Origin: an uncultured Phycisphaerales bacterium
Lineage (GTDB): Bacteria; Planctomycetota; Phycisphaerae; Tepidisphaerales; Tepidisphaeraceae
Reading direction: 5' to 3'
Length of the DNA stretch: 64,000 bases
NCBI GenBank assembly: GCA_963755915.1
Contig: CAVWLP010000002.1
Location: forward strand, 2,464,001 to 2,528,000
Every line of letters starts with the position of its first letter. The stretch's first letter is position 1. The notes under the pieces are model-generated. The model did no database searches. It was not told where the DNA came from and saw nothing but the letters and a program-made list of their open reading frames with translations. Made by a program: the position numbers and the translations under genes. This document shows, in pieces, positions 31,649 through 58,298 of this stretch.

Positions 31649-31970
31649 CCCGCGCCGTGGCGGGGGGTTTCGTTACCGTTGACAGAATTGAAAAAATCGA
31701 AACGCCCCGCGGGGGGGTGTACGCGTTTTTTCGCGGATGGCGACAGGGGGTGAGAGTGGGTGGTTTTGAGCTTCATCATGGGAAAATGCACGCCTCTATA
31801 TACAGGTCCAAAGGGTGTACGTTTTGGACCTATTTTGCGTGGGCGAAGCAAATTTGTTTGGGGTTGAATAGATCGAATTTTTAGCGGGCGGGGCATGTGG
31901 GGGATTTTCGGCGGGATTGAGATCTCATCGTCGGCTTCGCTGGAGGCCGCGGAGGAGAATCGGGAGGGGT

Positions 31971-32055
31971 GCGCGCAGAGCGCTGAGCGCGGGAGAGAAG
32001 AGAGGGGATTTTGATCATGCCTCTTTCTGCGTCTCAGCACCTTTGCGCGAAACCG
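31971..32055. repeat. CGCAGAG-family palindrome (empty intron-target-like copy)
   Basis: cgcgcagagcgctgag ... ctcagcacctttg|cgcgaaacc. Confidence 0.75.
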
Positions 32056-34418: not shown

Positions 34419-35349
34419 ATGAACAGCGGAACTCGATGCGGCTTAGTCGCAGTTGGCGCGGGTCTTTTACTGGCCTTATGCGCCCGGCGTTACAGGGGCA
34501 GATCACCGGGATCGTCAGTTCGGATGTGCAGGGGTTCTTCGGGTCGGCGAATGATTCTTACCAGCAGTCCGAATTTCCCGGCCCTGGGAGCTGGGCTCCC
34601 ATTGGCTTCCCGCTTCCGAACGGTCCGACGCCGCTTCCCGGCGTTCCGAAATTGTACGTCGGTTATCCGAACGCGGTTGCTCCTGTCGTCTCGAACATCG
34701 GCTTCCAGCGCCGGCCGGGCATGCGCCGGGCGCTCCGTTCAGTGATAGCATCACCACTGCCGACTATCACATCTACGGCGGCGACTTCGGTCCATTGACG
34801 AAGACGGGCAATGCCTACGTCCGGCTGGGAAATAACAGCGCAACACTCATGTATTTGGACCAGCCTACGGGGGCCGTGGGTTACGCCTACGAGGAAGAGC
34901 AGTTCGTGATCGATTACAGCGTAGGGCCCAGTGGGCTGCTTCCCAGCCCCACGCCGGGGCCGCGGCCGTATCTGATCTTCGGAAATTTCAACCCCGGCGG
35001 GTCGGCGGAGTTTGGGGCGCAGGTTAACTACTGGTTCCAGCCGACACTTCCGGGAACAACGCTGGCCAATGGGCCGGCTACATTTCTTGGAAATCTGAAT
35101 TACGACGACTACATGAACACCGTAACCGGTCCGTTCTTTACATCCGTATCAGATACGACGGCAGGTCTTTTGGGTGTGCCGGCGGGTTCGATCGGGGTTC
35201 TGGAGTTGACCGGGGATATGTATGTGATGGGTGATCCGGTGGATATCTCGGTGGAGGCGGTGGTTCCTGAGCCGGCGAGCCTGGGGTTAATTGCCACGGC
35301 GGGCTTGCTGCTGTGCCGGCGGCCGAAACTTCACCGCCCGCTGCGCTAG
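34419..35349 (+). CDS. PEP-CTERM protein, paralog 3 (frameshifts)
   Basis: SD ggagga, 'VQGFFGS', 'LELTGDMYVMGDP' and VPEPASLGL...RR. Confidence 0.8.
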
Positions 35350-35454
35350 AGCAGGCAGAGATTGCGGAGAGAATTCAAGAGGGTCGCGCAGAGCGCTGAG
35401 CGCGGAGAGGGGCAGGATTCGAGTTTCTTCTCTCTCTGCGCCTCAGCGCCTCTG

Positions 35455-37427
35455 GTGCGTCAGTGAAACCGGTTTTGTCTTGTGAACTGAAAGGAGTTCA
35501 CCATGGAATGACCCGTTAGCCGTGTAGCCGCCCGGGCGTGACGACGGAGCAATCGGTCGCGCGAAGCCCCGGAAGGCGAAGGCGCGAGCCGTAGCGTTAA
35601 GCGAACCCAAACCAGCCTCGTTACGCCAATGGGAGTGGCCAACCCGTCAGAGAGGGCCAAGCCGGCGCGGACGATGAAGCAGCGGGTGCGAGCAATCGTC
35701 CGGCTCCTCGGGGTCGATGGGGACGGCGCGTGCCGACAGACAAGATCGGGAACTGAGAGACCCCACGCATCGTTGTGCGGCTCGTTGAAAAGACATAACC
35801 AAGGGACGGGAAGCGTGGGGAGTCGGATGGGCTCATAGTAGCTGAGAAGCGGGGTAATGCCCGTGAGCGGAGGCGAAGCCTGCCGCGAGCCAAGGAGCCC
35901 TGACGGTATCGAGCGGAAGTAAGAAGAAGAGAGGCCCGCTTGCAGGGACAACCTGACAGTACGGATGATCCGACAGACTTGCCGGAGCACCTGAGGGTGA
36001 ACTCCAGGGGTCTGCCGGGGAAAGTCTTTCTTCTGAGACAGAAGCTATACCTCAAAGCCAAGCGGGAACCGGGGTTTCGGTTTTACACCTTGTACGACCG
36101 GATCTGCCGGCGCGATGTTCTGGAAGCGGCGTGGGACCGGGTGTCCGCCAACGGCGGGGCGCCCGGCTTGGACGGGGTGAGCATCGAGAAGGTGCAAAAC
36201 TCCGAGCACGGCGTCAGTGGATTCCTGAGCGAGATCGAAGAATCGCTCAAGACCCGCACCTACCGCCCGCAGCCGGTGAAGCGCGTGTACATTCCCAAAG
36301 CCAACGGCAAGCGGCGTCCATTGGGCATCCCCACGATCCGAGATCGCGTGGTGCAGATGGCGGTGCTGCTGCTCATCGAGCCGATCTTCGAGGCGGATTT
36401 CCTGGACTGTTCGTATGGATTCCGTCCCGGTCGCTCGGCTCACGATGCGCTGGAGGCGATCAAGCAAAACCTCCAGCAGGGCCGAAGGGAAGTGTATGAC
36501 GCGGATTTGCAGTCGTACTTCGACACGATTCCCCATGAGAAACTGATGGCGTGTGTCCAGAAGCGGATCACGGACGGAAGCGTGCTGAAGCTGATCCGGA
36601 TGTGGCTGAAGGCGGTGATCGTCGAAGAAGGCGAGAAGCCCGGCGATCCACCGAAAGTCACCCGGAGCAAACAGGGAACGCCGCAGGGCGGAGTGATCTC
36701 GCCGCTGCTGGCCAACCTATATCTGCACTGGTTTGATAAATTGTTCCACCGATCCGATGGCCCGCATCGCTGGGCGAACGCCCGGCTGATCCGGTACGCC
36801 GACGACTTTGTCATCATGGCAAGGTATATAGGCCCTCAGATCAAGCAGTTCGTGGAACGCACGCTGCAAGGCCGGTTTGATCTGACGATCAACACCGACA
36901 AGACCCGCACGGTGAAGTTGAAAGAGCCGGGCGAAAGTCTGAACTTTCTCGGGTACAGGTTCCGGTACGACCGGAGCCTGCAAGGCGGGCCGGGGCGTTA
37001 TCTGAACCTCTGTCCTTCGAGCAAGTCGATGCAGCGTGAGCGGGACAAATTGCGGGAGATGACCGGACCCGAAGCAGGCTTTGTGCCCATCCCGGCGTTG
37101 ATCGTACAGATCAACGAGCACCTGAGAGGATGGGCCAACTACTTCGGCAAAGGCTATCCGCGCAAGGCGTTCCGTCAGATCAACCGATTTGTGCAGGAGC
37201 GACTGGAACGACACCTTAAACGTCGCAGCCAGCGTCCGTTCCGTGTGCGCGGAGCGAGGAGCTGGTACGAACAGTTGCAGCGTCTGGGCCTCATCAGCCT
37301 GCGACCTGTTCCGACCGTGAATGCTTGAGAAGAACAATACCGTGAGAGCCGGATGCGGGAAACCCGCTCGTCCGGTTCGAAGAGGGAGAGCTGAGCGGCA
37401 ATCGGGTCGTTCAGTTCTCTACTCTAC
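35455..37427 (+). mobile_element. Group II intron, complete (~1973 nt)
   Basis: 5' GTGCG; domain V GAGCCGGATGCGGGAAACCCGCTCGTCCGGTTC (AGC triad); domain VI ending ...CTCTAC; the exons rejoin to a REP arm. Confidence 0.93.
35940..37328 (+). CDS. ltrA: Group II intron reverse transcriptase/maturase, no obvious endonuclease domain
   Basis: 'APGLDG', '[11 protein letters not shown]', '[17 protein letters not shown]', RYADD, X domain 'GWANYF'. Confidence 0.96.
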
Positions 37428-37512
37428 CGCGAAACCCGCATTTTATTTTTATAGCTTGGGCGGGGAAGTAGATTGCCAAAAAACCGATCCGGTGCGGGCT
37501 CTCTTTGCTCTT

Positions 37513-37580
37513 CCTGGCGCCCTTGGCGTCTTGGCGGTTATAAAGATTTTTAACCGCCAAGACGCCAAGAGCGCCAAGAA
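37513..37580. repeat. CGCCAAG-family 9-mer inverted repeat (empty IS110 target)
   Basis: cctggcgcccttggcgtcttggcggtt ... aaccgccaagacgccaagagcgccaagaa. Confidence 0.8.
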
Positions 37581-54942: not shown

Positions 54943-55017
54943 GGTTCGCGCAGAGGCGCGGAGAGAGGCAGGATTGAAACTGGTTCTCTCAACGCCTCAG
55001 CGCTTCTGCGCGAAACG
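54943..55017. repeat. CGCAGAG-family palindrome (empty intron target TCTG|CGCGAAAC)
   Basis: gttcgcgcagaggcgcggag ... cctcagcgcttctgcgcgaaac. Confidence 0.75.
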
Positions 55018-57411: not shown

Positions 57412-58298
57412 GACCTTCGTTGATGCAGACGCTCAAGCAACTTCGGCTTTCAGGTCTGGCGAGCAGCCTTGAAGTTCGCCTGAGCGAGGCGGCCGGCAAT
57501 CGGCTCGACCACAGTGAGTTTTTGGAACTGATCCTTCAGGATGAACTGAACGTCCGATCCAGCCGGCAGATCGGCCGGCGCGTCAAGGCGGCGATGTTCC
57601 GCGACACCAAAAACCTCGACGAGTTCGACTTCTCCTTCAACACCTCCATCAAACGCAAACAGATTCACGATCTGGCCGCCGGCCAGTTCATTCGTGACAA
57701 ACGTGACGTGCTCTTGCTGGGTCCGCCCGGCGTGGGCAAATCGTTTTTGGCCCAGGCCATCGGACACCAGGCGATCAAGAGCGGCTTGGTGGTCCTGTAC
57801 CGATCCATCTTCGACCTGGCCCGCGACTTTTTAGGCGACGAGGATCTGGGAGCCCAGGACAAGACGCTGGCCCGGTATCTCAAGCCTGATCTGCTTATCA
57901 TCGACGACATGGGAATGAAGCAGCTTCCGCGGCGCAGCGGCGAATGCCTGCTGGAGATCGTCATGCGCCGGCACGAGAACCGCTCGACGATGATGACCAG
58001 CAACCGTCCACTGGAGGACTGGGCCAAGCTGATCGGCGACGTGCCGGCGGCCACGGCCATTCTGGATCGGTTCCTGCAGCACGCCACGATCATCAACATC
58101 ACCGGCAAGAGCTACCGCCTTCGGCATGGGGGCCATTCGACTTCGCTCACGGCAGGCCAATCCGGGACACCGGAAAAGACAAATCCAAAAGGACGGCGGA
58201 GTACCGCCGGCGATGAAGGGTGCTCCCCCCCGGAAGACACCGTGACAGAGCCGCCGTTGTCTTCTGATGTGGGGGTATCCGCCGGCCAGACGGCGTGA
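57408..58298 (+). CDS. istB: IS21 helper ATPase
   Basis: 'FDFSF', GPPGVGKS, 'LLIIDD', 'TSNRP..DW', 'AILDR', 'G.SYR'. Confidence 0.96.
   Translation: MRPSLMQTLKQLRLSGLASSLEVRLSEAAGNRLDHSEFLELILQDELNVRSSRQIGRRVKAAMFRDTKNLDEFDFSFNTSIKRKQIHDLAAGQFIRDKRDVLLLGPPGVGKSFLAQAIGHQAIKSGLVVLYRSIFDLARDFLGDEDLGAQDKTLARYLKPDLLIIDDMGMKQLPRRSGECLLEIVMRRHENRSTMMTSNRPLEDWAKLIGDVPAATAILDRFLQHATIINITGKSYRLRHGGHSTSLTAGQSGTPEKTNPKGRRSTAGDEGCSPPEDTVTEPPLSSDVGVSAGQTA

Follow-up and report, generated by a model that had tools for sequence, protein, structure and literature searches.

A group II intron outside class C at a fixed base of a dispersed palindromic repeat in an uncultured Phycisphaerales bacterium

Bacterial group II introns are described as having three target specificities, for homing sites, terminators and attC sites, and the non-C lineages are all assigned to homing (Zimmerly & Semper 2015, PMC4424553). 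We analysed a window of 64,000 nucleotides from the genome of an uncultured Phycisphaerales bacterium, in which a complete group II intron that codes for a reverse transcriptase (RT)/maturase interrupts a dispersed palindrome, and compared it with the described introns that it resembles. Class F (IIF) introns, above all those of the g5 cluster (Ge.ur.I1, So.us.I2, Pe.th.I2, c-Ku.st.I1), encode, like this one, an RT-X protein without an endonuclease (En) domain and have a IIB-like RNA of 450-700 nt exclusive of its open reading frame (ORF), where, again as here, alpha' lies in the terminal loop of Id3, the domain V loop has 5 nt and two exon-binding sites, EBS1 and EBS2, are present (PMC3753933). 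Their host phyla are similar, including Acidobacteria, Geobacter and planctomycetes (Toro & Martinez-Abarca 2013, PMC3552965; Toro & Nisa-Martinez 2014, PMC4244168). The available excerpts of the class F papers hold no statement of a life in palindromic repeats, unlike what we describe, but the 5' exon of Ge.ur.I1 carries three motifs that resemble intron-binding site 1 (IBS1), 9-10 nt apart and each followed by UG (Nagy et al. 2013, PMC3753933); by analogy, its target seems to be made of phased units in a similar way to the one here. Introns of class C (IIC) and its IIC-attC members share with ours the lack of En, the use of imperfect DNA palindromes at gene ends and the many dispersed sites (Zimmerly & Semper 2015, PMC4424553; Waldern et al. 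2020, PMC7306698). Unlike them, it has an EBS2, an EBS1 of 5-6 bp, a IIB-like RNA and a sequence-defined site inside the 3' arm of the palindrome, a need for structure being a candidate only.

Two further systems resemble it in their choice of target. RmInt1, the class D intron that lives in ISRm2011-2 of Sinorhizobium meliloti, is also En-less, also uses EBS1, EBS2 and EBS3 and has likewise settled in a mobile or repeated element of many copies. At replication forks it favours one of the template strands (PMC8632793), its known preference being for the lagging-strand template. Its target, however, is a protein-coding insertion sequence and not a small non-coding palindrome, its RT belongs to a different class, and the palindrome described here offers both orientations at each locus, unlike the target of RmInt1. 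Repetitive extragenic palindromes (REPs) are likewise dispersed intergenic palindromes that serve as landing sites for mobile DNA, and a group II intron of Pseudomonas putida KT2440 is REP-associated in 2 of its 9 copies (Tobes & Pareja 2006, PMC1525189). Compared with that partial association, all 13 copies in our genome for which both junctions are present lie in the repeat, at one fixed base, and the repeat consists of tandem octamers without a link to Y1 transposases, the type of the REP-associated tyrosine transposases (RAYTs). The KT2440 intron is a terminator-type intron of class C. We found no description of a class E/F-type lineage specialised on palindromic repeats in the literature searched (exclusive of Simon et al. 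2008, Toro et al. 2002 and supplementary files, and through excerpts), the nearest being the 2/9 entry of Tobes & Pareja 2006 and the repeated IBS motifs of Nagy et al. 2013; the words palindrome and repeat are absent, by term search of the available text, from a survey of the genomic neighbourhoods of class D, E and F introns (Waldern et al. 2020, PMC7306698).

The insertion site and the body of the intron comprise the following features (window coordinates).
35383..35418, plus strand: 5' arm of the REP-like palindrome, made of tandem GCGCAGAG-type octamers; pairs with 35426-35454 and 37428-37432 in the rejoined fold.
35426..35454, plus strand: 3' arm up to the insertion point, which is the 5' exon; IBS2 GCG at 35446-35448, IBS1 CTCTG at 35450-35454.
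35455..37427, plus strand: complete group II intron, 1973 nt, with Rfam matches and with 12 full-length copies that share its ends; 5' end GTGCG, 3' end ..CTCTAC.
35511..35516, plus strand: alpha, loop of stem Ib; 6 bp with 35682-35687.
35682..35687, plus strand: alpha', terminal loop of a stem-loop in subdomain Id3, from the consensus structure and the alpha pairing.
35940..37328, plus strand: intron-encoded RT/maturase of 462 aa with an intact translation, inside domain IV; its TTG start is kept in relatives.
37344..37427, plus strand: domains V and VI, from the Rfam alignment; domain V has an AGC triad and a 5-nt GAAAC loop.
37428..37434, plus strand: outer end of the 3' arm of the palindrome and start of the 3' exon, CGCGAAA; IBS3 is C37428.

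Upstream of the intron the sequence reads gtcgcgcagagcgctgagcgcggagagg.., the 5' arm of GCGCAGAG-like octamers, the 5' exon terminates in ..ctctgcgcctcagcgcctctg and the 3' exon begins with cgcgaaacc. Excising the intron in silico rejoins ..ctcagcgcctctg/cgcgaaacc (a slash marks the junction), and the rejoined site forms with the upstream gtcgcgcagagcgctgag.. arm one long imperfect hairpin with a minimum free energy (MFE) of -67.4 kcal/mol and a z of -6.5, in which the junction lies within the 3' arm, 5 paired bases inside the base of the stem. The window holds two uninterrupted copies of the repeat, at 31970-32055 (junction 32045/32046) and 54945-55015 (junction 55008/55009), and an additional exact empty target on the minus strand at 54946-54959. 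The original prediction, made from the letters of the window, had placed the intron at a defined site of a dispersed palindrome and had read the same junction in these two copies; both points agree with the restored fold and the copies found. The element itself has the attributes of a group II intron, namely a GUGYG 5' end, a triad-bearing domain V, a domain VI, an AY 3' end and an RT/maturase ORF in domain IV. RF02005 (group-II-D1D4-6) matches at 35493-35723 with 51.2 bits and RF00029 (domain V/VI) at 37344-37427 with 53.6 bits, stopping exactly at the 3' end of the intron, 37427. The tip of domain V reads GCGG-GAAAC-CCGC, 16 of the 18 relatives aligned retain 6/6 bp of the alpha-alpha' interaction, compensatory changes included, and the ribozyme without the ORF measures ~584 nt. 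The RT/maturase scores 389.9 bits against NCBIfam TIGR04416 (group II intron RT/maturase; cut-off 300). Its Pfam content is RVT_1 and GIIM only, and no DNA-binding and endonuclease (D/En) domain was found in the ORF by the Pfam search, the lack of En having been predicted.

This intron has recently proliferated and is intact. The host genome (3 contigs, 6.63 Mb) contains 12 full-length copies with the same ends, identical at a rounded 100%, together with one internally deleted copy, one 5' fragment and one 3' fragment. The same nine bases, GCGCCTCTG, precede the intron in 14/14 copies with a 5' junction, and CG follows it in 14/14 copies with a 3' junction; the 3' exon is CGYGA, the outer end of the palindrome, in 12/14, including the 3' fragment at C2:332521 (CGCGA), and CGCCTCGG, an inner repeat unit, in 2/14. 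Collecting the copies and aligning their flanks, the check proposed along with the original prediction, placed all 13 copies with both junctions in the same repeat family, at one fixed base, and none in unrelated sequence of this genome. Occupancy was computed on an intron-less genome from which these 13 copies had been removed: it contains 64 exact GCGCCTCTG/CG sites, 13 of them occupied and 51 empty, and the 51 unoccupied occurrences of the exact 11-mer GCGCCTCTGCG exceed the 9.4 expected from base composition. The constant association of intron and target at the same base is also what would be seen if the repeat, or larger segments, had been multiplied with the intron aboard, the site not being chosen by the intron. 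We regard such passive spread as highly improbable: outside the repeat the flanks of the occupied loci are unrelated, the repeat loops and arm variants differ between loci whose introns are identical, 51 exact sites are empty, and the covariation of guide and exon in relatives, described below, implies that the RNA selects the site. In contigs from soil metagenomes (four runs, two studies) the intron is ~12x deeper than its flanks (52.3 versus 4.3 in run X1), and contigs break at 35455 and at 37429-37436, their loose ends corresponding to 3' exons found at other copies. As the source sample may be among these runs, they are not independent support. A separate, single-copy group II intron lies outside the repeat, from G000:C2:3596531 onward; it begins with GTGCGCCGGG and scores 111 bits against RF02005, well above the 13-copy intron.

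The RNA guides that read the target were located by covariation with the exons in a domain I alignment of 28 non-redundant lineage members, and by a consensus structure computed with RNAalifold from 18 sequences, in which 94/118 pairs show compensatory changes. Three elements were mapped.
35624..35626, plus strand: EBS2, CGC, in an internal loop of subdomain Id, just upstream of the EBS1 hairpin.
35648..35652, plus strand: EBS1, CAGAG, in the loop of a CCC/GGG hairpin at 35643-35656 (window CCCGUCAGAGAGGG).
35716..35716, plus strand: EBS3, G, the partner of 3' exon position +1.

The EBS1 loop covaries with the last 5-8 bases of the 5' exon: the EBS1-IBS1 pairing anchored at -1 has a mean of 5.57 bp in the 28 relatives versus 3.45 +/- 0.22, with a maximum of 4.07, in 500 exon permutations. 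The EBS2 triplet pairs with exon positions -7 to -10, by at least 3 bp in 25/28 relatives, whereas 1000 permutations of the exons average 13 of 28 and never exceed 20. When EBS2 pairing was sought without constraint, the relatives did no better than permuted exons (4.75 versus 4.80 bp), only the fixed alignment register being informative. For EBS3, the column is Watson-Crick with exon position +1 in 25/25 relatives (G:C, A:T or T:A), the best column of the alignment. Given these three assignments, the intron RNA therefore reads GCG-n-CTCTG/C. The original prediction had located EBS1 elsewhere, as a CAGA at 35737-35740 (plus strand) in a stem-bounded loop. We rejected this candidate: in the consensus it lies in the 3' strand of the basal helix of domain I, opposite its partner 35471-35482, and its sequence stays the same whatever the exon, with no covariation. 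A recognition limited to a short IBS1 and a DNA stem-loop, in the manner of IIC introns, does not hold either, the guides comprising 5 bp of EBS1, 3 bp of EBS2 and 1 bp of EBS3.

These guides bear directly on the class of the intron. In class C introns the ribozyme is small (~400 nt) and domain V bears a CGC triad; they lack an EBS2, pair through an EBS1 of 3-4 bp and insert a few bases downstream of the stem-loop of a terminator or an attC site. Here, in contrast, EBS2 is present and covaries (25/28), EBS1 has 5 bp, the ribozyme measures ~584 nt, the triad is AGC, and the junction lies within the stem and not after it, inside the 3' arm with 5 paired bases beyond. The AGC triad, foreseen in the original prediction and read from the Rfam alignment, is found in 19 of the 22 relatives listed; since L026 and L070 carry CGC and others AGC, the triad varies within this non-IIC lineage. 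Nagy et al. 2013 (PMC3753933) give two idiosyncrasies of IIE/IIF introns, an alpha' placed in the terminal loop of the Id3 stem-loop and a loop of 5 nt in domain V. The first is present in the window intron, and the second, in the form GAAAN, is kept in most of the 22 lineage members listed. A third trait of IIE/IIF introns is an extra bulge loop in DId3; our consensus structure shows internal loops in Id, which may or may not correspond to it. The intron RNA is thus not IIC, because of its EBS2, its 5-bp EBS1, its AGC triad and its ~584-nt ribozyme; by its sequence features it is a IIB-like RNA of the IIE/IIF type, and the earlier placement outside IIC, to which EBS3 and the IIE/IIF traits also contribute, was correct.

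The evidence from the protein is less clear than that from the RNA. The RT is 42% identical over 409 aa to that of an intron on a Nitrobacter hamburgensis plasmid, and the match includes an N-terminal extension. This plasmid intron is presumably Ni.ha.I1 or Ni.ha.I2 of the published class F; its RNA matches Rfam D1D4-4 and not D1D4-6. Ni.ha.I1/I2 belong to subgroup g3 of class F (Toro & Martinez-Abarca 2013, PMC3552965). Class F introns are probably the nearest described relatives; the RT comparison covered one class F member, of g3. Against RTs of solved structure, the highest scores were obtained with the GsI-IIC RT (223 bits) and an E. rectale-type RT (186), followed by IIB and IIA enzymes (152 and 148). 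The first two chains we take to be class C enzymes, and the alignment with GsI-IIC RT begins only at residue 51, leaving the N-terminal extension shared with the Nitrobacter RT uncovered. These scores, the lack of an En domain, the position of the repeat just downstream of a gene end and the genome of a Desulfobacterota relative (L048), where 5/7 copies lie 10 nt after a G+C-rich hairpin, are what an ordinary class C intron inserted after a terminator-like hairpin would also show. The covarying EBS2, the 5-bp EBS1, the triad, the size of the ribozyme, the IIE/IIF positions of alpha' and of the domain V loop, the insertion within the stem and the affinity to Ni.ha all speak against it, and we give this explanation hardly any weight.

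We then compared the targets of relatives in other hosts, using 80 loci of the 316 RT relatives found (43-82% identity); the intron ends were set from multicopy genomes and conserved end motifs. The metagenome-assembled genomes (MAGs) that carry them belong to Planctomycetota, Acidobacteriota, Gemmatimonadota, Nitrospirota, Desulfobacterota, Bacteroidota and others, with one Bathyarchaeota MAG. Relatives sit in host-specific repeats, with EBS sequences changed to match, as the following sites illustrate.
L020 (Tepidisphaeraceae): CGTCTTGG/CGTCTTGGCGG; RT 82% identical; the target is a unit of a second palindrome family, present in the window at 37506-37577.
L036/L037 (Acidobacteriota): TTTTTCTG/TCTG; 57 uninterrupted motif copies in the genome, mostly as inverted pairs 44-58 nt apart; control pattern 0.
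L038/L039 (Gemmatimonadales): AATCTG/CG.
L041 (Bathyarchaeota): CATCTGTGTTTATCTG/TG; 145 copies in the host; control pattern 0.
L055 (Nitrospira): CTTTCG/TG.
L066-L069 (Rubripirellula): TTTCG/TG and TTTTG/TG.
L070 (Blastopirellula): CCTCTG/TG.

That the lineage homes to repeats, as the original prediction had proposed, is thus also seen in other phyla, in the hosts' own repeats. That the second palindrome of the window is the target of the close relative L020 points to switching of the lineage among repeat families that share a genome. The reverse complement of the segment from -12 to +2 recurs upstream of the junction at 7/23 non-redundant sites versus 9/2591 control positions in the same loci (p ~1.6e-11; ungapped, at most 2 mismatches, within 170 nt upstream). 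The site of the window is not among the 7, its arm having a bulge. This inverted-repeat test replaced an MFE-based palindrome test, which had a high background (13/23 sites versus 174/866 controls). Palindromes are not universal in the lineage: 13 copies in a single Planctomycetota genome sit at a unit of direct repeats (TTGGGTTYG..TTT/), 2/7 copies in the Desulfobacterota genome lie in unrelated sequence sharing only the last 10 bases, and several single-copy relatives show no repeat at the junction. One relative follows a further copy of the same intron in tandem, 6 bases beyond its 3' end, which resembles a twintron (L045:820-930).

We consider it probable that the intron spreads by ordinary retrohoming guided by EBS/IBS pairing, with the repeat unit as a multicopy homing site and with a bias for one replication strand. 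The spliced intron RNA, bound to its RT/maturase, would reverse-splice into DNA matching three short guides, EBS1 CAGAG with CTCTG (-5 to -1), EBS2 CGC with GCG (-9 to -7) and EBS3 G with C (+1), presumably in single-stranded DNA at the fork. Because the 9-base target is the unit of a dispersed intergenic palindromic element, the genome offers dozens of equivalent homing sites, of which about one fifth of the exact ones are filled, and relatives keep the same architecture with EBS1, EBS2 and EBS3 changed to suit the repeats of their hosts. The sequences are those of an En-less intron that appears active or very recently active. As for the strand, most loci, being palindromic, offer an exact target in both orientations. 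Nevertheless, in the region of C2 from 1.29 to 4.26 Mb, 8/20 exact plus-strand sites are filled versus 0/20 minus-strand sites, a region picked after seeing the data; along C2 the copies run one minus, eight plus and then two minus, and both copies on C3 are minus. Relatives are regionally uniform too: by a hand tally of every contig, here or in a relative, that carries two copies or more, neighbouring copies switch orientation in 6/30 pairs versus 15 expected. Such filling of one orientation over megabase regions would be expected if insertion and priming used one template strand at replication forks. A tentative reading of the data puts all 13 copies on the lagging-strand template; it presupposes that replication starts close to the dnaA homologue at C2 1.09 Mb and terminates at ~4.36 Mb, half a genome away.

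Several observations weigh against retrohoming of this kind or against its link to the fork. The genome has two dnaA homologues (C2, 1.09 and 2.25 Mb), the GC skew is patchy, the orientation of tRNA genes is weakly biased, and C2 and C3 may join in more than one way and in either orientation; GC skew, the strand bias of long ORFs and tRNA orientation gave no clear origin or terminus in this genome. In the closed chromosome of a relative (OW818690), a dnaA-based origin would put its 4 copies on the leading-strand template, and the dnaA search in relatives gave no usable origin, two genomes having two homologues each and one having none. The alphaproteobacterial host of L084 has just one further copy of its target unit, and the metagenome contigs contain no joint across 35454/37428, the empty-site allele. 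Were the site single-stranded, as DNA or RNA, a very stable stem would enclose IBS1 and IBS2, which is awkward for a model of pure base pairing. Finally, 133 genome sites match GCGNCTCTG/C, all 13 occupied ones fall among the 64 exact GCGCCTCTG/CG sites, and 0/69 of the other sites that meet the EBS1, EBS2 and EBS3 pairings are occupied; there must therefore be determinants beyond base pairing, be they C at -6, G at +2, protein contacts or the context of the repeat. Beside these replication features, an array of ~26 tRNA genes occupies one strand within 3 kb (G000:C2:3699000-3702000), and ~30 identical ORFs of 304 aa and 9 identical ORFs of 334 aa weakly match the DnaA ATPase domain, one of them in the window at 57705-58013 (C2:2521705-2522013); from their sequence these ORFs look like ATPase helper genes of high-copy insertion sequences.

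The context of the repeat could act through structure, the ribonucleoprotein needing the folded palindrome, as a hairpin or cruciform on single-stranded or supercoiled DNA, besides the short pairings, much as the stem-loops of terminators or attC sites are required by class C introns. Several points favour such an assisted targeting, which we nonetheless think unlikely. In unrelated repeat families and different phyla (window, L020, L036, L037, L038, L041, L055, L066, L070, L084) the junction falls within the 3' arm, separated from the base of the stem by 2-5 paired bases, palindromes are enriched at lineage sites (the 7/23 versus 9/2591 above), no repeat has introns in both arms, and the 0/69 pairing-competent sites filled outside the exact motif would follow. 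Enclosure of the target bases in so stable a stem speaks against simple access in single-stranded DNA and allows for recognition that depends on structure, but the same fold would hide IBS1 and IBS2, both within the stem. Exact sites with a partner arm are occupied in 13/~57 cases and those without in 0/~7, a difference that is not significant and is underpowered; 3 occupied sites missed by the strict palindrome filter are imperfect palindromes on inspection. On the other side stand the non-palindromic members L019, L021, L025, L044, L057, L065 and L079 with the 2/7 copies of the L048 genome, the clear EBS2 and the EBS1 of 5-6 bp, unlike the reduced pairing of class C, and the numbers of this genome, in which structure is confounded with the extra conserved bases at -6 and +2. 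A requirement for the hairpin is thus a candidate feature, on which the ~7 exact non-palindromic sites are too few to be informative. In its fullest form, this explanation would make the introns an En-less, class F-like lineage, ranging from Planctomycetota to Bathyarchaeota, that is specialised on palindromic arrays of short phased units and needs the palindrome itself, as an extruded hairpin or as a fork-stalling structure that exposes the lagging-strand template; we find this doubtful. If it were true, insertion would occur at a set distance of a few bases from the base of the 3' arm, within it, every locus would offer a correctly oriented site whichever the direction of replication, and palindromes would join homing sites, terminators and attC sites as the fourth target specificity found naturally in bacterial group II introns.

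The palindrome is REP-like as a target and we do not class it as a REP, because its copy number is modest (24 strict two-arm copies genome-wide) and it has no Y1-transposase neighbour: neither of the genome's 2 Y1-transposase loci has the target unit within 1.5 kb, and REPs, or the REPINs that they form, are defined by high copy number and a RAYT. Of the original claim of a non-IIC, En-less lineage that homes to a REP family, the class, the absence of En and the dispersed palindromic repeat stand, and the REP status is reduced to a likeness; to call the repeat a safe harbour is an interpretation. One of the Y1-transposase genes (G000:C3:1124980-1125820, equal to L099:1354-2191) is flanked by AACGGGGACGCAGCTAGTT hairpin repeats, distinct from the target family of the intron, and with them may be a true RAYT/REP pair. 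The second, unrelated palindrome just 3' of the intron (window 37506-37577) reads ..CTTGGCGTCTTGGCGGTT ataaagattttt AACCGCCAAGACGCCAAG.., its unit occurring 21-38 times in the genome, and a much commoner repeat of ~40 nt, with overlapping 12-mers such as CCGCCTGCGGCG and GAGCACCGTCGA in ~175-190 copies each, is unrelated to the intron target. The gene at 34795-35349 ends 34 nt upstream of the palindrome, and the C-terminus of its protein, read by eye from the DNA, resembles a PEP-CTERM sorting signal (..PEPASLGLIATAGLLLCRR..).

With its guide set of 5 + 3 + 1 bp and its 12 full copies, the intron is a candidate model for En-less retrohoming. The presence of the same target on both strands of a locus constitutes a natural experiment, in which the orientation of the copies reports the strand preference of insertion directly, and a phased-unit target may explain the 'alternative 5' splice sites' of Ge.ur.I1 in vitro. 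More generally, selection may have favoured multicopy intergenic targets, and a non-C lineage that repeatedly retunes three guides to the palindromic repeats of its hosts suggests how En-less introns can multiply to many copies while doing their host little harm.

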